DNA of 64,000 nucleotides from Candidatus Campbellbacteria bacterium (GCA_024653945.1 JANLIT010000003.1:30097-94096); one strand, 5' to 3'. Shown: positions 3,619-64,000, counted from the first letter of the stretch. Numbers and translations are program-made. Notes: generated from the letters alone by a model not told the origin.

Positions 3619-6318
3619 ATGCTCAATAACGCTGATGCACTCACTGTACACAGTGAGGACATCCGCGCCCTTCAGAGCTCCTCACCATCATTCTGGGTGT
3701 GGGCACGAGAGGCGTGGATCAAAGGATACCTTGACATCGTCGTCGAGGCCGTTATCACGACTGGCGTAGCCAATGATGTACCGGGGACGCTCGCATATCT
3801 TCAGGCGATTTACCTAGACCAAGTCGGTGGTTCAAAAAAAGTAGCACTCACCGATTTTGCAGGGAAAAATCCCTGGAACAAGCTCCACGCACGTCTGAGT
3901 ATCGCACTGGGCAAGACAAAACCCGCCACTGAACAAGATCTCACGCTTATGCACGGGATTATTGGTCACGCTGCGCTTCCACGACTATTTTCGAGCCGCT
4001 TATTCAGGGAACGAAATCATCGTGTCCTGCGCGAGGAAATGCGCCAAAGCTTGTTGTCGTTCTCTCCGAAGGAAACCGAGATTGGACAAATGACGTTCGG
4101 TTTCGGCGCTGATGTTCCTGCTACCTACGACGCTGTCGGACGCTTGGAAAGCGGTAAATCCGTTCTTGCACGAACAGCTCTGAAAAGAGCGATGACGTTC
4201 TGGAAGGAACACCGCTTGGCAGTCAATGAAGATAACCGCGCACAGTGGCGCGTGCTCGTTCCAAGACTTCGCGTAATCATGGAACCGATTTTCGGTCACT
4301 ATGTCTCGCGACTCGATCTGCATCCAGCCGCTAATCCCGAGATGACGTTCCTGACGCTCATGAGTTGGGCGAGTACGCTGTACTACTGGAAAGAGAATTA
4401 TCGTCGGGTTCTCTTCTCCGAGATAAATACCGTGCTCTCTACGCACGGTTTTCCCGGAGGAAGAGTTGACGCGGTTGAACTCCGCAGAATTGAAGGGGAA
4501 CGACTGACAAGAAAACAGGGTCTCATTCTCGAGTCCCTCAAGGTTCTCCGAAATCGTTCTGCGGGTGAACTCGTTGGTAGGTTCCAACGACAATTTCCCG
4601 GCGTTCTTGAAATTGCAATTCTCGACTGGAAGTTTGCTGTCGGAGACGCACTGGTTCGAGGAGAAATCATCAAACCAAGTGATATCGCGCGCGAACCGTT
4701 TCCAAAGCATCGCTTTCAAGTTGAGCGGTATCTCGCGCTGGCAATTCTTGACCACAGTCTGCAACATGGCATTCGGTATGACGACGAGGTATGGGCCCAG
4801 TACGGACATCGGCTTACCGCCGATGTTGTGTACTTTCTGCCGGGCACACTGCCAATCGTGCATACCGTTGCTCCGGATACTGCACTGCTCAAAGAAGTCT
4901 TCACGACCAGCACTGCCCAGCCTTGGGATAACGCGCGTGACCGCTCGACAATACGTCTGGCCAATAACGCAATCCTAGGACACCTTCTGGGTCTCATTGA
5001 GGGCGGACACAAAGGTAAACAGAACAAGAATGGCACGTCCGCAACTCTACAGGCAGAACTCTTCGACGGACGCACTGGATACGCATCCGTGACGGACATC
5101 ATTGAGAAGCACAAAAACGGGAAGACGGCCGTCGACGTTCACGGCATCATCTTCAAGACGGCGAACGGCAGTTACGAGATGCACTTTGATCGGTTGGTTG
5201 CTGCGGTCGAGCGAGATGATATCGGAACTCGGAATTTCTCCGCCGAATACGGAGGCAAGGTTTCGTGCATGATGCCAGGTCATGATGATTCTGGTCCATC
5301 CATGCACATCTACCTTGACGGAACCCCGCGATTCTTTTGCTTCGGCTGCGAAGCGCGCGGTATCATCGCTGTCAGCTCACTACCCGATCACTTCGAGATA
5401 TCACCCAGCACATTCCGTCGGCACCATATGCCGATGCAGACGGGGGAAAAGGAGACCAGTCTCGATATCTTGATTCCCGAGCGTTACCATCACCTGTTCA
5501 CCACTCTGCAAGAAAGTCTTGCGAGCGCTTTTCACGGAAGCTCTGCGGAACGGTACGTCGCATACAAGCGCAGAATCGACCCTGATCTTGCGTTCACCTA
5601 TGGCGCCGGTTTCGGTACATCGGCGTTACTCAACGACTTACTCGATGCGAAATGCTCGCTTGAGGAGCTTGCGACAAGTGGTATCATCCGCTTCTCTTCA
5701 GAGGTCAAGCCTGACAGCGTCGTCCCACGGCTCTTGAAACGGCACGGCATGCACATTGAGGAACTGACGCGGACCGTGAAGAAAAAGCCCGCATTGCCGT
5801 ACTGTCTTCTCTTTGACCGTGTTACGTTTCCTCTGACGTTTGAAGGTCGTCTCTCGAACTTCTACGCACGTAGCATATCGCCGAGAGGTCTTCCTCATGT
5901 GAAGCTTTCCACGCACCTCACGCAGGGTGGCTTCAACATGGTTGCTCTTGCTGACCCGAACTCCTCTGAAGTAATTATGACCGAAGGAGCCTTTGACGCG
6001 CTCACCCTCATTTCGATGGGGTTTACGAATGTCTTCTCGCTCATCGGCGTATTCAATGTCCCGTTGTTCGGGAGCATCATGCGTTCCGGCAAAGATCTGG
6101 CAACTGCCTTCGACCGCGATTCAAACGTCTACAAAACAGGGCAGACGAAAACCTTGAAGATTGAGAAAAAACTGCGGGAGTGGGGATTTCCGGGACGTGT
6201 TTGTGACTATACCGAAGCCTTCATTCAGAAGCTTCCTCCTGAGGAACGTCCGTCTGAAGGAGATGGTACAAAGTGGGATTTCAACGGATGGTGGTGCGAC
6301 CCTGCCCGCCGCCGTTAA
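3619..6318 (+). CDS. Large (~900 aa) fusion protein: N-terminal ~550-aa domain of unknown function + C-terminal DnaG-type primase core (CHC2 zinc finger + TOPRIM)
   Basis: CMMPGHDDSGPSMHIYLDGTPRFFCFGCEARG matches the DnaG CHC2 zinc-binding motif. VIMTEGAFDALTL (TOPRIM E) and AFDRDSNV (DxD) lie downstream at primase-like spacing. SD aaggagatgggagATG at 3619. The upstream 60 codons of the track ORF span the terminator. Confidence 0.6.
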   Translation: MLNNADALTVHSEDIRALQSSSPSFWVWAREAWIKGYLDIVVEAVITTGVANDVPGTLAYLQAIYLDQVGGSKKVALTDFAGKNPWNKLHARLSIALGKTKPATEQDLTLMHGIIGHAALPRLFSSRLFRERNHRVLREEMRQSLLSFSPKETEIGQMTFGFGADVPATYDAVGRLESGKSVLARTALKRAMTFWKEHRLAVNEDNRAQWRVLVPRLRVIMEPIFGHYVSRLDLHPAANPEMTFLTLMSWASTLYYWKENYRRVLFSEINTVLSTHGFPGGRVDAVELRRIEGERLTRKQGLILESLKVLRNRSAGELVGRFQRQFPGVLEIAILDWKFAVGDALVRGEIIKPSDIAREPFPKHRFQVERYLALAILDHSLQHGIRYDDEVWAQYGHRLTADVVYFLPGTLPIVHTVAPDTALLKEVFTTSTAQPWDNARDRSTIRLANNAILGHLLGLIEGGHKGKQNKNGTSATLQAELFDGRTGYASVTDIIEKHKNGKTAVDVHGIIFKTANGSYEMHFDRLVAAVERDDIGTRNFSAEYGGKVSCMMPGHDDSGPSMHIYLDGTPRFFCFGCEARGIIAVSSLPDHFEISPSTFRRHHMPMQTGEKETSLDILIPERYHHLFTTLQESLASAFHGSSAERYVAYKRRIDPDLAFTYGAGFGTSALLNDLLDAKCSLEELATSGIIRFSSEVKPDSVVPRLLKRHGMHIEELTRTVKKKPALPYCLLFDRVTFPLTFEGRLSNFYARSISPRGLPHVKLSTHLTQGGFNMVALADPNSSEVIMTEGAFDALTLISMGFTNVFSLIGVFNVPLFGSIMRSGKDLATAFDRDSNVYKTGQTKTLKIEKKLREWGFPGRVCDYTEAFIQKLPPEERPSEGDGTKWDFNGWWCDPARRR

Positions 6319-12992: not shown

Positions 12993-14105
12993 ATGCAGCG
13001 CGGTATTGACAAACCTTTTCTTTTTATCACAAGCATTCTTGTTGTTGCGGGAATGTTTATTTTTATTTCTGCATCAATTGGACTTCTTGCTCGAGCAGAG
13101 AATCTTAATGTTTCTGGACAGATTATTAACCAACTTCTGTCTCTAGGAATTGGTCTTGCCCTTGCACTTCTTGTGTTCCGATTTCCTGTTACTTTTTGGC
13201 ACACCTACTCATTTTATATTTTGTTGGCAGGACTTGCCGCAACACTATTAGTACTCATACCGGGCTTTGGACCCGAACACGGAGGCGCGCGCCGCTGGAT
13301 TGAGATTGGCTCCGTATCACTTCAACCGGCCGAGTTTTTGAAATTTGCGTTCATACTTTATTTTGCCGCCTGGTGTACCGGCGTTCGAAAACGCATACAC
13401 ACATTTACCTATGGCCCGCTTGCACTGCTCCTTCTTCTTGTGCCTGTTGGGTTTGTCCTCTGGTTACAGCCCGACTACGGTTCAATCACCATTATTGGCG
13501 CTACGGGAATGTGCATGTTGATATTTGCGGGAGCACGTTGGAAACATATTATTTCGCTTTCTTTGATTGGTGGTGTGTGTGCACTACTGGTCGTACTTTT
13601 TGTTCCCTACATACAAGACCGAGTGGACACCTTTTTGCATCCGGGAAAAGATCCACTTGCCTCTGGGTATCAAATTAAACAATCACTTATTGCTATTGGC
13701 TCTGGTCAAATAACTGGACGTGGGTTTGGACAAAGCACTCAGAAATTTAATTTTCTTCCTGAACCAATGGGAGATTCGGTATTTGCTGTTTTTGCTGAAG
13801 AGTGGGGATTTGTTGGTGGCATTGTTCTCATCGGTTTATTTATTGCCTTTTTAAACTTCGGTTATCGCATTGCTCTGCGCGCTGAAACGGCCTTTTCTCG
13901 TCTCGTGGTATTAGGTTTCGTTACCGCAATCGTAACGCAATCTTTCATTAATATGGGGTCTATGCTTGGCGTATTTCCACTCACAGGAGACCCTCTTGTT
14001 TTTGTGAGTAAGGGCGGAACATCACTTGTTTTTACCCTCATTGAAATCGGTATTATTTTGGCAATATCAAAACACACAAAAGAGCCGGGTACTGCAAAAA
14101 CCTAG
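12993..14105 (+). CDS. ftsW: SEDS family lipid II flippase/polymerase FtsW/RodA
   Basis: QPAEFLKFAFILYFAAW, PDYGS, GSGQITGRGFGQSTQKFNFLPEPMGDSVFAVFAEEWGFVGG. Start set at the internal ATG (12993) to avoid overlap with mraY. Confidence 0.85.
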   Translation: MQRGIDKPFLFITSILVVAGMFIFISASIGLLARAENLNVSGQIINQLLSLGIGLALALLVFRFPVTFWHTYSFYILLAGLAATLLVLIPGFGPEHGGARRWIEIGSVSLQPAEFLKFAFILYFAAWCTGVRKRIHTFTYGPLALLLLLVPVGFVLWLQPDYGSITIIGATGMCMLIFAGARWKHIISLSLIGGVCALLVVLFVPYIQDRVDTFLHPGKDPLASGYQIKQSLIAIGSGQITGRGFGQSTQKFNFLPEPMGDSVFAVFAEEWGFVGGIVLIGLFIAFLNFGYRIALRAETAFSRLVVLGFVTAIVTQSFINMGSMLGVFPLTGDPLVFVSKGGTSLVFTLIEIGIILAISKHTKEPGTAKT

Positions 14106-14175
14106 TAACGAAAGGGGGTATTTCTGATATACTTATGGAGTACTGTTCGCTGTATACGAGCAGTGTAATACTTTT

Positions 14176-15330
14176 ATGCGCATTATTCTTACAGGCGGGG
14201 GTTCCGGAGGGCACTTTTATCCAATGATTGCTGTTGCTCAGCAAATTCATGAGATTGCAAAGCTCGACCATTTGGTTGAACCTGAGCTTTTGTACATGGC
14301 TGCTGAACCGTACGACATGGACGCACTTCTTGAAAATAATATAGAGTTCAAACACATAACCGCCGGAAAACAAAGACGTTATTTCTCATTTAAAAATGCC
14401 ATTGACGTGTTCAAGATAGGGTGGGGGATGGTAAAGGCAGTTATAAAAGTGTTTCTCTCATTTCCCGATGTTGTGTTCAGTAAGGGCGGATATCCAAGTG
14501 TTCCTGTTGTGTTTGCAACAAAACTATTTCGTATTCCGCTCGTCATTCACGAATCTGATACCGAACCAGGACGTGCAAACGCATGGGCCGCAACATATGC
14601 ACAGCGTATTGCAATTTCATATCCAGAGTCAGTGGACTATTTTGAAAAAATCACCGCACGACGAAAAAGAAAACCGAGAATTGCGCTCACAGGAAACCCT
14701 GTCCGTCACGAACTACAGACCGTTGCAGTATCTGGTGCACATGAATTTTTAAAACTAGAACAAGGCACGCCAACTATTTTAGTTCTTGGCGGTTCTCAAG
14801 GTGCCCAAGCCATCAACGAAACTATTATTGAAGCACTTCCTCGACTCATTGAAAAATATCAGATTCTTCATCAGACAGGATCCGCGCTCTACGACATAAC
14901 TATTGGCAGCGCAGATACTATTCTTGAAGGAAATCCGCTCAAAGAACGCTACCACGCATTTCCATTTCTTAATGTTGTAGCTATGCGCATGTCTGCCGGC
15001 GCCGCTGATCTTATTATTTCCCGCTCTGGCTCGGGTTCTATTTTTGAGATTGCTGCATGGGGTAAACCATCAATTCTCATTCCTATTCCAACAGGCGTCA
15101 GTCATGACCAAGAAAAAAATGCCTTCGCATACGCACGTACCGGCGCAGGACTTGTTGTTGAACAAGCAAACCTGACACCAAACCTCTTGGTATCTGAAAT
15201 TGACCGTCTGATGAGCGCACCTGACGAAATGGCTTCCATGGCACGCAAAGCATCGGAATTCGCACGCCCCGATGCCGCTGAAAAAATTGCCCGCGAAGTG
15301 CTTGATGTCGCTCTTGAACATGAAAAATAA
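14176..15330 (+). CDS. murG: Undecaprenyldiphospho-muramoylpentapeptide beta-N-acetylglucosaminyltransferase
   Basis: MRIILTGGGSGGHFYPMIAVAQQI has the MurG N-terminal G-loop. 384 aa. Confidence 0.9.
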   Translation: MRIILTGGGSGGHFYPMIAVAQQIHEIAKLDHLVEPELLYMAAEPYDMDALLENNIEFKHITAGKQRRYFSFKNAIDVFKIGWGMVKAVIKVFLSFPDVVFSKGGYPSVPVVFATKLFRIPLVIHESDTEPGRANAWAATYAQRIAISYPESVDYFEKITARRKRKPRIALTGNPVRHELQTVAVSGAHEFLKLEQGTPTILVLGGSQGAQAINETIIEALPRLIEKYQILHQTGSALYDITIGSADTILEGNPLKERYHAFPFLNVVAMRMSAGAADLIISRSGSGSIFEIAAWGKPSILIPIPTGVSHDQEKNAFAYARTGAGLVVEQANLTPNLLVSEIDRLMSAPDEMASMARKASEFARPDAAEKIAREVLDVALEHEK

Positions 15331-34514: not shown

Positions 34515-35738
34515 TTAATGCAACCTTAATGTTTTTTTCCTAAACGTAGAGATTGCAAAACGATGTGCCTCATTGTTGGCGAGAAGAATTTCCTTTCCAT
34601 ACTCTGTGATGTGTTCCTTATTTCCAAGCAATTTTTCAGGTCGGTGTCGTTCGTTTTTTGTAACCGCAACAACAGGAATTTGATAGCCAAAGGTTTTCAA
34701 CACTTTTTCTGCGGTATTCTTTTGAGCAATACCACCATCCACAACAATAAGTTTCGGCAACTGCCATTCGTTGTGATTGAGTCGTCGTTCTAAAATTTCA
34801 GCAAGTCCTGCGGTGTCCCCTTTTTGATGTGTTTTAATAGTGAATGTTCGATATTCTTTTTTGTTGGATTCCCCATTTTCCACAACCGTCATCACTCCCA
34901 CTCGAGCCGTTCCAGAAATATGCGCCACATCATATGCTTCAATACGGAACGAGTTTGTAGCTTGTAGCTTGTAGCTTGTAGCTTTTAAAAGAGACACGTC
35001 CTGAATATGTTGCAGAGCGTACAGACGACGTTTCATTTCAGACGCCATTTCAAATTGTTTTGTCCTAGCATACGCCTTCATGTCACGCGTAATGGCACGG
35101 ATAAGTTGTTTCTTTTTCCCCTCAAAAAAGAGCACAATATGCCGAATTGTTTTTTTGTACTCACGTGGAGTGATATTCTTCGATTGGGGTGAAAGTCCAA
35201 TCTCTTCATACAAACGAGACGCTCGTCTTCTGTCCGTCGCAAGAGGTGCATCTGTCTTTCCGCGATACGGAAATATTTTACGTATAATTTTGAGCGCTTC
35301 CTGTAACTGTGTCCCATATGGAAACGGTCCAAATGTTTTTTGATATTTGATATTTAATATTTGATTTTGCAACAGTTCTCGGTGGCGTATCGTAAAGACA
35401 CGAGGAAATTGCTCAAAGGTGATTACGACGTAATTAAAGCTGGTGTCACTTTTTTCTTTTGCGTTGTACTTCGGCTGGTGCTTTTTAATAAGCACCGCTT
35501 CAAGGATAAGCGCCTCCAATACCGAGTCGGTTTTCTCCACACGAACACCTGTTGCCTCCTCAAGCATTTTTACAATGCGCGGTCCACGTGTCTCTGTAAT
35601 ATCAGACAAGAAATAACTTTTCACCCGAGAACGGAGCGATGTTGCCTTTCCAATGTACAAAATCTTCTTTCCTTTTAAGAAGAAGTACACGCCCGGCATG
35701 TCGGGAAGTGTGTGTATTTTAGAATCAATGAATTTCAT
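34515..35738 (-). CDS. uvrC: Excinuclease ABC subunit C, compact form (GIY-YIG + UvrBC + RNase H-like endonuclease domain, no C-terminal HhH pair)
   Basis: PGVYFFLKGKKILYIGKATSLRSRVKSYF (GIY-YIG), FEMASEMKRRLYALQHI (UvrBC), RIEAYDVAHISG... endonuclease domain. 407 aa. Confidence 0.75.
   Translation of the reverse strand: MKFIDSKIHTLPDMPGVYFFLKGKKILYIGKATSLRSRVKSYFLSDITETRGPRIVKMLEEATGVRVEKTDSVLEALILEAVLIKKHQPKYNAKEKSDTSFNYVVITFEQFPRVFTIRHRELLQNQILNIKYQKTFGPFPYGTQLQEALKIIRKIFPYRGKTDAPLATDRRRASRLYEEIGLSPQSKNITPREYKKTIRHIVLFFEGKKKQLIRAITRDMKAYARTKQFEMASEMKRRLYALQHIQDVSLLKATSYKLQATNSFRIEAYDVAHISGTARVGVMTVVENGESNKKEYRTFTIKTHQKGDTAGLAEILERRLNHNEWQLPKLIVVDGGIAQKNTAEKVLKTFGYQIPVVAVTKNERHRPEKLLGNKEHITEYGKEILLANNEAHRFAISTFRKKTLRLH
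34955..34982. repeat. Tandem microsatellite (GTAGCTTG)x~3.5 inside uvrC coding sequence (encodes ATSYKLQAT)
   Basis: Direct reading: tttgtagcttgtagcttgtagcttgtagc. Confidence 0.7.
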
Positions 35739-36738: not shown

Positions 36739-39399
36739 TTATTCTTTGGACTTTGTACTTTGAACTTTGTGCTTACGCAATGCTTTGTGTAGATACTTTC
36801 CTGTGTGTGTACCAGAATCCGCAACTTCTTCTGGTGTTCCGTGAGCAACAACCTTCCCGCCTTCATTTCCTCCGTCAGGGCCTATATCTATAATGTAATC
36901 CGCACTCTTCACAATGTCCATGTTGTGCTCAATGAGGATAACGGAGTTTCCTTTTGTGGTAAGCATTTGGAGTATTTCTATCAGTTTTCGCACATCTTCG
37001 TAATGAAGCCCAATTGTCGGCTCATCAAGGAGATAAAGTGTTTTTTGTACGTGTGTGCGGTAGAGTTCAGAAGAAATTTTGACACGCTGTGATTCCCCAC
37101 CTGAGAGCGTTGTGGCCGATTGGCCGAGTTGTAAATACCCAAGACCTACCTCATTGAGTGTGTTGAGTCGGTCAAATATTGCAGGAATATCATTAAAAAA
37201 TGCGAGAGCTTCCTCAACGGTCATTGAAAGCACGTCGTGGATGCTCTTGTTTCGATATTCAATTTCTAGTGTTTCGCGCATAAACCGTTTGCCATGACAC
37301 ACATCACACCCAACATACACCGTCGGCAAAAAGTGCATCTCAACCGCAATCTCACCTTTTCCTTCACATGCTTCACATCGCCCACCTTTTACATTGAATG
37401 AAAAACGACTTGCTTTCCAGCCACGAGCACGAGCTTCTGCTGTTGTGGCGAACATGTCACGAATATGGGTGAATGCGCCAGTGTATGTTGCTGGATTACT
37501 GCGTGATGTGCGTCCAATCGGCGACTGGTCAATCATAATCGTTCGAGACACATACTCTGTTCCTGTGATAGACCCACAATTAAACGTTTGCGCGGTGCGA
37601 TATTTTCTCTCAAGGCGCGCCTGCAAATTTTTGTACAAAATCTCATACATGAACGACGATTTTCCGGAACCAGAAACACCCGTGACAACAATAAACTTGC
37701 CGAGTGGAATATCCACATTCATATTTTTTATATTGAAGATGTTTCCTCCGCGAATTTTAATCGTTCCCTTATCCGCCGTACGGCGCATCTCGGGAAGTTC
37801 AATTTGTTTTTCTCCGCGCAAATAGGCAAGCGTGAGTGATTTTCCTTTCACTGGAGGTTCTTTTGCGGTCAATAATTCTTCCAAATCTCCGGCAACGACG
37901 ATTTTCCCTCCATGAATACCGGCACCGGGCCCAATGTCCACAATATAATCGGATGAAAAAATGGTGTCCTCATCATGTTCAACAATAATCACGGTATTTC
38001 CAAGGTCGCGAAGATTGTGGAGTGTTCTGATGAGACGATCGTTATCATGAGCGTGAAGTCCTATTGTTGGTTCATCAAGCACATAGAGAGCGCCCACAAG
38101 TCCTGAGCCGAGTTGGGAAGCAAGTCTGATGCGTTGTGCTTCCCCACCTGAAAGTGTGTTTGCACGACGGTCCAGTGTCAGATACCCAATCCCCACATTC
38201 TGCATAAATTTGAGGCGGTCAATAATTTCACGCACCACCACATTTGAGATTTCTTTTTCTTTCTCCGTCAACGGCAAATCAACAAAAAATGCATGGGCGT
38301 CATCTACAGACAAGGCCGTGAGCTCAACAATATTTTTTTCATGAATACGCACGTGGAGTGCTTCGGGACGAAGACGTGCACCGTTACACACTAAACACGG
38401 GTCGTTAACAAAAAAGTCCTGCGTTCCTAACCCATTACATTCTGCACATGCACCATACGGACTGTTGAATGAAAATAAACGTGGTTCAATTTCTGGGTAC
38501 GAGTAGCCGTCATTTGGACATGAAAACTTGGACGACATAAGCACGCCGATGTCGTTTGTTCCTTTCTTTGTAAACTCATCAATGCCAGAAAAGACAATGC
38601 GCACAAGTCCTTGTGCTTCATGAAGCGAACGTTCAAGTGACTCACGCAACCGTTCAACAGCATTATCTTTCGATTCAACAAAATCAACCAACGGAATACG
38701 GTCAATGAGAATATCAATGTCGTGCTTTTTGTGTTTCTCTAGAATAATTTGCTCACGGAGTTTTTTACGCACACCATCCACCAACACCTCCGTATAGCCA
38801 CGATTGAGAAAGTCATACAACTGTTGGTAGTACTCTCCTTTTCGTCCACGTACAATAGGAGAAAGAATTTCGAGTGCAGGACCACCTTGTGCATCAGTAA
38901 TTGCTTCGGAGAGATTTTTTTGCGTACGTTTCTTGAGACCAGCCGATGCTTTAATAATTTTTTCAAGAATAAAATGCTGAATTTCTTCGTTCGTCAAACG
39001 TTTAATCGGTTCACCACACACCAAACAGTGCGGAATACCAATGCGCGCGTACAAAATACGAAGATAATCGGAAATTTCCGTAATGGTTGCAACAGTTGAA
39101 CGTGGATTATTTGAACGAGATTTTTGGTCAATTGAAATTGCAGGAGAAAGCCCGACGATTTCATCAACATCTGGTTTTGGCATTTGGCTGATAAATTGTC
39201 GCGCGTATGCGGACAGTGATTCAACGTATCGACGTTGGCCTTCAGCAAAAATGGTATCAAACGCAAGGGATGATTTTCCGGAGCCAGACAAACCAGTAAA
39301 CACCACCATTTTGTTGCGTGGCATTTCAACCGTAATATTTTTAAGGTTGTGGGTTCGTGCGCCTTTGACGATTATTTTATCGCTATCTGGTTTTTTCAT
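36739..39399 (-). CDS. uvrA: Excinuclease ABC subunit A
   Basis: Two ABC ATPase modules ([10 protein letters not shown].., GVSGSGKSS..), LSGGE signatures, zinc-finger cysteines. 886 aa. ATG abuts repeat copy C. Confidence 0.9.
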
Positions 39400-39694: not shown

Positions 39695-39760
39695 TATAGC
39701 AGAAAAGGGATAAGTAGGAAGTAGTAGGTAGAATGTAGTAAGTAGTAGGTAGAAAGCAAA
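39695..39760. repeat. GTAG-rich degenerate tandem repeat tract (AGTAGTAGGTAGAA x2 plus variants)
   Basis: Direct reading: aagtaggaagtagtaggtagaatgtagtaagtagtaggtagaaagc. Confidence 0.5.
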
Positions 39761-62152: not shown

Positions 62153-62629
62153 CTACATGTTCTCCGGCAAGGGGTTGATACCAAGGATAGGAGCTATATA
62201 GAAGGTCACTACATACTCTTGTGGGTTGATACTAATGGTCGATTTTGGAGTGGGTGTAACCGAGAGTAGTGAGACGCGGTAGCCCGCAAAAGTGACCGGT
62301 TGCTCATTTTCTACCATGGTTACTGTTGTTTTTTCAGTTCCACTTTGGAGTGTGACATCAACAGTAACTGCGCCTGCCCAAATACACTGTACGTCGGTAG
62401 GACAACGGCTATCTGATACCACCTTATTGAGTGTCAGGGAAAGCCCCGCACCTTCCCCAGTCTTTCCTACCCCAAGCGCAACTTCTGCAGGTGCGCGAAC
62501 TCGTCCGTCATCTGTATTTTGATTTTCATCTTCAGGAGTAATTGGTTCTTGTGTACGCGAAGAAAAAATCACATACGACACTCCAGAAAGAATTACGAGG
62601 CCAATAACAATGTAAAATATTTTTTTCAT
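62153..62629 (-). CDS. Hypothetical secreted protein (N-terminal TM, CPxDVQC motif); ATG abuts repeat copy F
   Basis: 158 aa. SDSRCPTDVQCIWAGAVTVDV resembles the CPxxxxC motif of 268..804. Confidence 0.5.
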   Translation of the reverse strand: MKKIFYIVIGLVILSGVSYVIFSSRTQEPITPEDENQNTDDGRVRAPAEVALGVGKTGEGAGLSLTLNKVVSDSRCPTDVQCIWAGAVTVDVTLQSGTEKTTVTMVENEQPVTFAGYRVSLLSVTPTPKSTISINPQEYVVTFYIAPILGINPLPENM

Positions 62630-62690
62630 ACGATTTCACAAAATCGTGTCGCGCAACTGTCCGCTAAAGCGCGACGTTAATTTTATTTTT
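62630..62690 (-). repeat. Start-codon-abutting repeat element, copy F (short form)
   Basis: The reverse complement reads acgtcgcgctttagcggacagttgcgcgacacgattttgtgaaatcgtATG. Confidence 0.75.
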
Positions 62691-62785
62691 ATTTGTTAAT
62701 GTTTTGCTCTAGATAAGTATACCCAACACATAGGGATTACCCAAACTATTATGTGCTGGGTTGTATTTCTTAATCCCAGAAAACA

Positions 62786-62818
62786 AAAGCCCCTCCACTG
62801 TGGTCGGGGCTTTTGTTG
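62786..62818 (-). terminator. Rho-independent terminator after poly-Asp protein gene
   Basis: aaaAGCCCCtccactgtggtcGGGGCTtttgttg. Confidence 0.65.
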
Positions 62819-62832
62819 ATTATACGAGATGA

Positions 62833-63495
62833 TTAGTTGTCGTCATCATCGTCATCATCATCGTCGTCGTCATCATCGTCGTCGTCATCATCGTCATCAT
62901 CATCGTCGTCATCATCGTCGTCGTCACCGTCACTACAATCATCAATACCGTCATTGACGCCGTTTGCCCACGTCTTGTCACTTGCACGACTTACGCGGTT
63001 CTCTGTTTCAATAACAAGCTCATCCTCAACTTGAGTAAGAGTTAGTGTGCTGTATTCCGCAAGAACATCCTCAATAATATCTGCTCGTACTGTTGAACTT
63101 GTTGTGAAGAGATCTTTTGTACCATTGAACTCAACCTTAATGAGAGTTTCATTGGTGTAGACTTTTGCTTCAAGTTCAGTAAGTCCTGATGTGTTTGTTG
63201 TACTCGTTGCACAATCATCATCTGAGTCATCATTTGAGTCATCATTTGAGTCATCATTTGAATTGTTTTCCCCTCTGCTGAGAAGTGCGAGTTGATTTGT
63301 CAGAAGTTCAATTAACCTCTGTAGCAACGATTCGAGGGTCTTTTGAAGTTGCTCAATATTTGCTACCGAATTTGAATTGTCCGACTCTGCGTGAACATAC
63401 TTCACGTTCAGTGTACTAAAAAGACCAACACCCAAAATAAGTGCTAGTGCAAATGCCACAAATGCTTTTTTATACGATTTTTTTTGCATAAACAA
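62833..63495 (-). CDS. Secreted acidic protein with ~45-residue poly-Asp C-terminal tail and internal (DDSN)n repeats
   Basis: Signal peptide MFMQKKSYKKAFVAFALALILGVGLF. ...NDDSNDDSNDDSDDDC... and a C-terminal D(45)N. Confidence 0.55.
   Translation of the reverse strand: MFMQKKSYKKAFVAFALALILGVGLFSTLNVKYVHAESDNSNSVANIEQLQKTLESLLQRLIELLTNQLALLSRGENNSNDDSNDDSNDDSDDDCATSTTNTSGLTELEAKVYTNETLIKVEFNGTKDLFTTSSTVRADIIEDVLAEYSTLTLTQVEDELVIETENRVSRASDKTWANGVNDGIDDCSDGDDDDDDDDDDDDDDDDDDDDDDDDDDDDDN
62835..62935. repeat. (GAY)n trinucleotide microsatellite encoding the poly-Asp tail
   Basis: About 100 bp of gtcgtc/atcatc repeats read directly. Confidence 0.8.
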
Positions 63496-63628
63496 TAATA
63501 TTATGTATAAATTAGTGTCCGCTAATATGCGGACTTACTACTAGTATATGATACCGCACTGGAAGCGTTACATCTAGTACGAACAAAAAATACGGGAATA
63601 CAAAATATATATTTGTCAAAATAAAGAA

Positions 63629-63991
63629 CTATTCTTGTACGCAGGTGTTGTGTGCTTTCACTTGCGCATTATACGTTGCAACGTCATTTTTTGATTGCTC
63701 AACAAACACATTGTACTGGTGCACGAGTGTGTTGTATACATCAACTTTCTGTGTATACACAGAACCGCGAGTTGGTTTTGTCGCCTCTATATCGTCAAGC
63801 ATGTCCGATAATTTTTGTTCAAGCTCAGAAAGTAATTGCTGGCTTGCTTCAATCTGATTGTTGAGGGTGATGCTTACTTCTGGACAATCAGACGTTGGCC
63901 GACCAAATTCTTGCACCGCCAACCATACTGCTTCTCCATTAAATAGTCCCTTTTTAATCGCCACGCCAATTTCTGTATATTTTGAATTCAA
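63629..63991 (-). CDS. Hypothetical protein (possibly N-terminally truncated by window edge)
   Basis: 120-aa ORF ending 9 nt from the window end. No recognisable motif. Confidence 0.3.
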   Translation of the reverse strand: MNSKYTEIGVAIKKGLFNGEAVWLAVQEFGRPTSDCPEVSITLNNQIEASQQLLSELEQKLSDMLDDIEATKPTRGSVYTQKVDVYNTLVHQYNVFVEQSKNDVATYNAQVKAHNTCVQE

Positions 63992-64000
63992 AATATTCTC

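Follow-up and report, generated by a model that had tools for sequence, protein, structure and literature searches.

A predicted secreted protein with a 29-residue aspartate tail, from an unannotated domain family of Patescibacteria

The DNA analysed here, called the window, is a stretch of 64,000 bp from a Candidatus Campbellbacteria bacterium (GCA_024653945.1 JANLIT010000003.1:30097-94096), with positions counted from its first letter. Near its end, on the minus strand, lies a gene for a 218-residue protein that closes with an unbroken run of 29 aspartates and a single asparagine. The gene starts with the ATG at 63487..63489 and stops with the TAA at 62833..62835. The open reading frame (ORF) extends further upstream, to a TTG at 63495, and the next candidate start is the ATG at 63489; we take the ATG because the orthologues P0001, P0002 and L006 begin MQ(K/N)KSYKK. 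The features of the gene and its protein are as follows.

62833..63489, minus: coding sequence of the 218-residue protein (ORF list, translation, orthologue alignment for the start, and the ratio of nonsynonymous to synonymous rates, dN/dS)
63388..63489, minus: signal peptide, residues 1-34, made of MQKKSYKK, a hydrophobic core and VHA/E (sequence reading; helix modelled at 6-33)
63265..63375, minus: leucine/isoleucine heptad helix, residues 39-75 (AF2 helix at pLDDT about 82-84; I/L in a/d register)
63214..63264, minus: acidic disordered linker NSN-DDSN-DDSN-DDS-DDD (pLDDT <50)
63211..63213, minus: Cys93, upstream partner of a putative disulfide clamp (co-occurrence of Cys in the family)
62959..63189, minus: core domain of ~75 residues, about 101-177, beta-beta-beta-alpha-alpha-beta-alpha (AF2, pLDDT 94-98)
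62935..62937, minus: Cys185, downstream partner of the putative clamp (co-occurrence of Cys in the family)
62836..62925, minus: poly-Asp tail, D29 (62839..62925) and its Asn codon (62836..62838) (codons, period 3 in Tandem Repeats Finder (TRF), disordered in the model)

A signal peptide had been proposed in a preliminary description of this DNA, and it is borne out. The n-region is basic (K3, K4, K7 and K8), a hydrophobic stretch leads to V-H-A/E, and the AxA/E cleavage site is kept in the orthologues as AHA/E or ARA/E. From this we infer a Gram-positive-type signal peptide, with export by Sec and cleavage by signal peptidase I. No hydrophobic segment follows residue 34, and the mature protein of 184 residues would have a net charge of about -53, the core domain alone having -8. 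Two other candidate roles were rejected, an intracellular DNA mimic being ruled out by the signal peptide, and a sortase, type I or type IX secretion sorting signal by the absence of the defining motifs.

The helix at residues 39-75 is probably a coiled coil serving as an oligomerisation module, to go by its modelled heptad register, and helices of the same type are found at the C-terminus of other family members. It leads into residues 76-100, acidic and disordered in the AF2 model. The preliminary description had placed DDSN repeats between cysteines in this region; the repeats exist, encoded by a 12-bp tandem repeat at 63215..63261 (3.9 copies, 97% matches in TRF), and so do two cysteines, but Cys93 and Cys185 flank the core domain, about 8-10 residues beyond its two ends. 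Extra DDSN units are missing from the orthologues, where they leave an alignment gap of 7-8 residues. The 12-bp repeat is much cleaner than the Asp tract, which suggests that it is the better candidate for recent slippage. Among 212 non-identical copies of the core domain, both flanking cysteines are present in 23, one in 9 and neither in 180 (Fisher p = 5e-23), while no copy has a cysteine inside the core. With shared ancestry allowed for, this co-occurrence points to a Cys93-Cys185 disulfide clamp, which would fit an extracytoplasmic location.

The tail (residues 189-218) is modelled, like the linker, as disordered (pLDDT <50). It had been described as some 45 aspartates and an asparagine, encoded by about 100 bp of near-perfect GAT/GAC repeat. 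The homopolymer, the terminal Asn and the (GAY)n repeat hold; the lengths do not, the run being D29 (48 is the number of Asp in the whole protein) and the tract 87 bp. Nor is the repeat near-perfect below the level of GAY, as 14 GAT and 15 GAC codons are interleaved in the order ccc tt cc ttt c tt ccc tt ccc ttt c tt cc (c, GAC; t, GAT). The longest run of one codon is three (9 bp), and there are 13 runs where about 15.5 would be expected, as in a random mix. At the nucleotide level the Asp tract is an interrupted microsatellite. It can be laid out in blocks, a 13-codon unit and then a 14-codon copy with one extra GAC, a pattern that points to an earlier tandem duplication of some 40 bp.

Repeat length was compared across genomes, as the preliminary description had proposed. 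Pure poly-Asp was found as D29 in the window, D29 in L006, D33 in L023, D34 in L008 and D35 in L007, always with the terminal Asn. L008 and L023 are 94% identical in nucleotides, yet differ by one Asp in the tail and by a 3-residue indel in the upstream acidic linker, and the L023 tail contains (GACGACGAT) x7. On these comparisons turnover of the tract by slippage and block duplication is visible at the DNA level. The earlier view of a slippage-prone tail that varies between cells or strains is thus upheld for differences between genomes (D29-D35), and fails for rapid variation from cell to cell, the tract being interrupted every 1-3 codons.

The codons have changed while the amino acid has not. 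Between the window gene and its closest relative, L006, synonymous sites are saturated (pS = 0.75) and the third positions of the tail agree at 15 of 29, as at random; even so, 160/160 tail codons across the five genomes encode Asp. For an Asp codon one in nine single-base changes is silent. Because the synonymous codons are scrambled and all still specify Asp, the run is retained by strong purifying selection on the amino acid and not as the by-product of a DNA repeat. The rest of the gene agrees, with dN/dS of 0.18 and 0.13 for the window gene against P0001 and P0002, and of 0.03-0.06 within the group of L007, L008 and L023; by these ratios the gene is under purifying selection. A row of 29 identical residues cannot have arisen by chance. 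The tract is the only homopolymer run above eight in any frame of the window, save for its own poly-Ser shadow on the other strand, and to our knowledge runs of about 30 residues are very rare in bacteria. The persistence of a D29-D35 tail through synonymous saturation makes this a clear case in nature of a homopolymer being selected at the level of protein.

The same data bear on whether this might be a contingency locus, where a hypermutable (GAY)n microsatellite would give variation in tail length from cell to cell, or antigenic or phase variation. TRF does detect a triplet array, related genomes do differ slightly in length, and there are the signs of block duplication, including the L023 repeat; we nevertheless consider such a locus highly improbable. 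No long uninterrupted tract exists, identical codons running to three units at most, and a repeat of period 3, in frame and within the last 30 codons before the stop, cannot switch expression. The lengths stay at 29-35 across genomes with saturated synonymous sites, the window and L006 both having exactly 29. Rather than a hypervariable locus, we see here an unannotated family member whose rare homopolymer is under selection.

Low-complexity repeats are liable to mis-assembly, and the tract also carries long antisense ORFs, so that a spurious ORF or an assembly artefact had to be considered. The plus-strand frames over the tract hold a 29-residue poly-Ser ORF and a His/Arg-rich ORF (62829-63034), and both are present again in L007 and L008. 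They are phantom shadows of the repeat that could be miscalled as genes. It may also be held against the gene that long poly-D proteins are not in a collection of 15 billion proteins; exact look-ups of the window, L006, L007, L008 and L023 proteins, with several start codons, found none in the large protein collection. Against this, the same architecture with similar tail lengths recurs in independent assemblies from different projects, and homologues, a confidently modelled fold and dN/dS far below 1 belong to the minus-strand frame alone. The kept gene order, the promoter-like element with its leader hairpin and the strong terminator (all below) also speak for a real gene. An artefact is in our judgement extremely improbable, and on the evidence of sequence this is a genuine, independently transcribed gene of Patescibacteria (Campbellbacteria-like).

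The protein search gave three homologues, one of them in CP064977, a complete genome of Candidatus Campbellbacteria. A core-domain profile made from three homologues and the window sequence matched 219 clusters, each represented at 50% identity, with the cutoff at E<=1e-3; 144 of them passed E<=1e-10. The family motif is EIEADxFTNETxVKVE ... ExEDRASRxxD, with 1-3 copies of the domain per protein, and the near-invariant residues E13, E15, T23, E28, L66, E71, R73, S75 and D79 are all present in the window copy. We located 17 loci in GTDB (one genome per species), all in records labelled as Patescibacteria (Paceibacterota, Parcubacteria, Minisyncoccia and 'Saccharibacteria'), and 6 more in metagenomes; every member of identifiable source belongs to Patescibacteria. 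By a hydropathy criterion, 159 of 170 members have a hydrophobic segment in the first 80 residues, the window protein among them. No paralogue of the helix or the core domain was found elsewhere in the window.

Searches for known relatives gave nothing. Scans of the protein and the core domain against Pfam, NCBIfam and PHROGs had no match above threshold, nor had Pfam any at E<=1; a 53-sequence profile had no match among PDB sequences even at E<=10; and Foldseek against PDB had none at E<=1e-3, the best being ribosomal eL38 and ASKHA subdomains with TM-scores <=0.47. A word-index protein search with the domain alignment and a metagenome scan with the single protein as query also came back empty. 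In the literature search there was no paper on DUF5667, a domain found in some relatives (below), and none joining Patescibacteria with 'aspartate-rich'. By these searches the family is undescribed and has no Pfam model. An unannotated domain family of about 219 clusters is thereby defined in Patescibacteria, whose surface biology and interactions with hosts and minerals are almost unknown.

Three architectures occur: (a) short secreted forms of the window protein type; (b) proteins with a Leu-rich helix after the domain in place of the acidic tail; and (c) long forms with an N-terminal segment of ~50 residues, a transmembrane helix, DUF5667, the core domain and an Asp-rich tail. Among 152 proteins the last residue is D in 65 and N in 37, and many tails are 60-100% D/E, often broken by NSGHG or NRGHG motifs. 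The earlier remark that such a tail is unusual for a reduced genome is therefore misleading, hyper-acidic tails being a family trait of these Patescibacteria proteins. That none of the 152 representatives has D>=20 is a biased result, because the long poly-D proteins are missing from that collection. The pattern D-D-N-(S/R/P)-G-(H/S/R)-G-x-x-D-D-D recurs in the acidic tails of relatives (for example P0040, P0043, P0067, L013 and L025), and DDDN or DDD closes many of these proteins; of all this the window protein has the terminal DDDN only. Possible roles for the motif are a metal site of His and Asp or a signal for processing.

We put a probability of about 0.5 on the protein being an extracytoplasmic polyanion, a selected poly-Asp tail on a folded domain, that binds divalent cations or cationic or mineral surfaces; it is part of this explanation that selection on the protein would keep the tail pure Asp, at about 30-35 residues. 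The folded alpha/beta domain would be the specific module and the tail a polyanion encoded by the gene itself and kept on the outer side of the cytoplasmic membrane. There the tail would most likely bind its presumed ligands, Ca2+ and Mg2+, with high capacity and low affinity, or attach, through divalent cations or directly, to cationic or mineral surfaces. Binding of calcium, other metals or minerals, which the preliminary description had put forward, is plausible. Cation binding is the established chemistry of poly-Asp and of acidic tails such as those of calsequestrin and the mineral-binding Asp-rich proteins. D/E-rich tails run throughout the family, and the poly-D genes of L007, L008 and L023 have a hyper-acidic secreted paralogue next door, which fits polyanions as a general strategy. 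Should binding of cations or polycations be borne out, the tail would offer a simple polyanion, encoded in a gene, that lends itself to testing and reuse.

The paralogues lie directly downstream of the poly-D genes (L008:4517-5569, L007:4333-5388, L023 around 2964). They share the signal peptide and the Leu-rich helix, and carry acidic helical repeats (AEDxxDDAED...) with an internal run of D12-D17.

Several points weigh against a polyanion selected for binding. The close orthologues P0001 and P0002 have interrupted tails, with longest Asp runs of 5-7, so that family members can do without a homopolymer. When the core domains are placed in a neighbour-joining tree, the pure tails form two lineages, the window with L006, and L007, L008 and L023; their sisters (P0001 and P0002; P0034 and L024) have mixed tails with Asp runs of 4-11, and lineages with mixed D/E tails lie between. 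This separation counts in favour of selection on the tail as protein, and the homopolymer was probably reached twice, or else repeatedly lost; but the tree comprises about 70 aligned residues and carries no support values. The signal peptide was called from sequence, and the hydropathy criterion served for the family in place of a dedicated predictor. Lastly, acidic disordered tails can act purely as spacers or solubilisers.

This last point leads to the idea that the tail has no ligand and is an entropic bristle, spacer or solubility module, providing hydration, extension from the envelope, and protection from aggregation or membrane re-entry. Tail and linker are indeed modelled as disordered, and the family conserves composition over sequence, with D/E mixtures and NSGHG interruptions. 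As a spacer would predict, most proteins of the acidic clade have about 40-49 residues past the core, regardless of their composition (43 residues in the window protein, 77% D/E), a constancy that also speaks for selection on the tail as protein. A spacer has no need of pure Asp, however, and two lineages have no Glu, Asn, Gly or Ser codon in 29-35 positions despite synonymous saturation; moreover, the tail is a free C-terminus, and no further part follows that it could hold at a distance. Because the Asp run stays pure, we rate a role as spacer alone as unlikely, though worth keeping in mind beside the binding polyanion.

The long relatives introduce another possible ligand. At least four of the seven long-form loci (L017, L018, L020 and L021) start 8 nt inside the end of a sigma-70 gene of the extracytoplasmic function (ECF) type, with matches to Sigma70_r2, r4 and ECF models down to E = 1e-15.

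L017:2941-3585: ECF sigma-70 gene upstream of a long relative
L018:3058-3636: ECF sigma-70 gene upstream of a long relative
L020:1879-2409: ECF sigma-70 gene upstream of a long relative
L021:3133-3645: ECF sigma-70 gene upstream of a long relative

The overlap looks like the classical sigma/anti-sigma arrangement, which would make the long forms anti-sigma-like by gene position; no Pfam anti-sigma domain was detected in them. DUF5667 (PF18915) was found in L017, L018 and L022. These forms have the same core of ~75 residues and an extracytoplasmic Asp-rich tail like that of the window protein, which differs from them in lacking DUF5667, a cytoplasmic N-terminal segment and a permanent membrane anchor, and in having a cleavable signal peptide instead; its gene adjoins a CAP-domain gene where theirs adjoin or overlap ECF sigma-70 genes. 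Judged by domain content, the window protein corresponds to the extracytoplasmic portion of the long forms, set free as a secreted protein. The module shared with ECF-sigma-linked proteins is a testable entry to envelope signalling in uncultivated bacteria.

The polyanion might on this basis sense polycations or act as a decoy for them (polyamines, cationic antimicrobial peptides or basic proteins of a host surface), in the manner of the acidic patch of PhoQ. In the long relatives it would then feed an ECF sigma/anti-sigma pair from outside the cytoplasm, and in the short secreted form it would be a soluble decoy or adhesin. The overlap with sigma genes and the order of cytoplasmic N-terminus, transmembrane helix, DUF5667, core and acidic tail in the long forms favour this, and GTAAC, the -35-like element ahead of the window gene, resembles the 'AAC' of ECF promoters. 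On the other side, the window protein keeps no cytoplasmic or transmembrane part after cleavage and has no sigma gene adjacent, the long forms have no recognised anti-sigma domain, and the -10 element TATACT is of a housekeeping kind, with the same motif preceding a murG-like ORF. A role in polycation sensing strikes us as doubtful.

The tract might also act during its own synthesis. In E. coli, consecutive acidic residues cause premature cessation of translation through intrinsic ribosome destabilisation, an effect that is offset once the nascent chain occupies the exit tunnel, which lets ORFs carry acidic runs near their ends (10.1101/2021.02.02.429294; PMC9718836). An Mg2+-dependent destabilisation by the Asp run could make completion, or coupling to a downstream gene, a report of cellular Mg2+. 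The run does stand at the extreme C-terminus, where acidic runs are tolerated, and its 29-35 residues are, on our own reckoning, close to what the tunnel contains. A strong terminator, however, ends the gene with no coupled ORF downstream, strong purifying selection acts on the remainder of the protein, which is folded and exported, and the effect is not known from Patescibacteria ribosomes. We regard a regulatory role in translation as very improbable; that destabilisation may cap the length of the tail is a speculation.

Elements of these ideas can be put together with the binding polyanion, in a combination that we offer very tentatively and think improbable as a whole. Patescibacteria would use protein polyanions as envelope components, fixed-length poly-Asp or poly-D/E tails on a dedicated small domain that would take the part which teichoic acids or poly-gamma-glutamate have in other Gram-positive-type cells. 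Such tails would hold and buffer Mg2+ and Ca2+ at the surface, or neutralise polycations. The module fused to DUF5667 would be the cation or polycation input of an ECF sigma/anti-sigma switch, and the figure of about 30-35 Asp would be capped by the number of acidic residues that the exit tunnel tolerates.

Calsequestrin-type Ca2+ buffers, like the window protein, have a disordered C-terminal Asp run and a very low isoelectric point and lie outside the cytosol; the window protein, bacterial and far smaller, has no thioredoxin-like domains (Pfam) and no relation to them in sequence or fold. Long, homopolymeric or nearly homopolymeric Asp tracts in secreted proteins are also found in Asprich of molluscs, aspolin of fish and the poly-Asp of osteopontin. 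These are eukaryotic and unrelated in sequence, and an interaction of the window organism with minerals would be a conjecture by analogy; the literature matches for Asp-rich mineral-binding proteins were all in reviews. The Sdr/Clf proteins of staphylococci are likewise exported, of Gram-positive type and endowed with an Asp-containing low-complexity stalk, and their SD repeats are resembled by the DDSN linker and by SDDD/DDS repeats in relatives. The window protein, in contrast, has no LPXTG, C-terminal hydrophobic segment or basic tail, ending instead in DDDDDN, and no MSCRAMM A-domain, and its acidic tract is a free C-terminus and not a wall-spanning stalk.

The likeness to PhoQ, an extracytoplasmic acidic cluster on a signalling protein, extends to the sigma-linked relatives only. 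The fold and the signalling system are different, and the PhoQ patch is a few residues on a folded domain as against a disordered tail of 30 residues. In Phafin2 a C-terminal polyD motif autoinhibits a basic lipid-binding domain (PMC9324892). Phafin2 is cytosolic and eukaryotic, whereas the domain next to the window tail is itself acidic (-8), which makes an electrostatic fold-back, and with it autoinhibition of the core by the tail, unlikely. RTX proteins of type I secretion have tandem GGxGxDxUx nonapeptides and no N-terminal signal peptide; the window protein has the signal peptide and no nonapeptide repeats, and its relatives carry isolated NSGHG or NRGHG motifs only, not tandem nonapeptides.

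Around the gene, the order is CAP-domain gene, poly-D gene, a gene for an exported protein of ~160 residues, a small DUF5679-like ORF, BipA and a DEAD-box helicase. The whole series is shared by the window and L003, with BipA at 92.6% identity; L001 shares it through the ~160-residue gene, and L006, at a contig end, has the CAP-domain gene only. In the window the flanking genes, both on the minus strand, encode a 158-residue exported protein with an N-terminal hydrophobic segment and no family match (62153-62629), and the C-terminal part of a CAP/SCP-domain protein, also exported (63629 to 64000 and beyond). L001, L003 and L006 keep the order from CAP to poly-D, and the relative at L024 likewise has a CAP gene nearby. 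Three elements flank the coding sequence.

63543..63571, minus: promoter-like element GTAACG-N17-TATACT (same spacing in four orthologous upstream regions, with diverged spacers)
63517..63534, minus: stem-loop GTCCGC-ATATTA-GCGGAC in the 5' leader (kept in four orthologues; also picked up by a terminator-like scan)
62773..62817, minus: intrinsic terminator, a GC-rich hairpin followed by UUUUGUUUU (RNA fold; ~16 nt past the stop)

The pairing of the leader stem-loop is retained through wobble and compensatory changes in L006 and L001. The terminator hairpin has a folding energy of -23.9 kcal/mol (z = -4.0 against shuffles), and an equivalent hairpin follows the orthologous genes in L003 and L001. 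GTAACG-N17-TATACT has just two matches in the window where none is expected. The second, at 14105-14133 (plus strand), precedes the MurG-like ORF (14176..15330) and is followed by a short hairpin, so that the two genes may have a common promoter and leader design or belong to a shared regulon.

An exact 10-mer, TTAGCGGACA, occurs twice on the minus strand of the window, at 63516-63525 and 62658-62667, against ~0.1 exact matches expected. Both copies are in hairpin-containing 5' leaders of adjacent co-oriented genes, those of the poly-D protein and the 158-residue exported protein; with one mismatch allowed, the count in the window is not significant.

Elsewhere in the window, a 27-bp unit, GTACGCGACATGATTCCGCAGAATCAC, is tandemly duplicated at 880-933 and is found again in L003 at ~5770-5800 (25/27 identical), within a hairpin loop upstream of the orthologous 164-residue gene; it may be a small dispersed repeat element. 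Four arrays of 7-bp units are TTGTAGC x4.3 (perfect; 34955-34984), TTTGATA x4.6 (35339-35369), CTTTGTA x4.4 (36744-36774) and TAAGTAG x6.6 (39711-39756). They lie inside or at the edges of a UvrC-like ORF (34515..35738, minus) and a UvrA-like ORF (36739..39399, minus), and since 7 does not divide by 3, gain or loss of a single unit would shift the frame.

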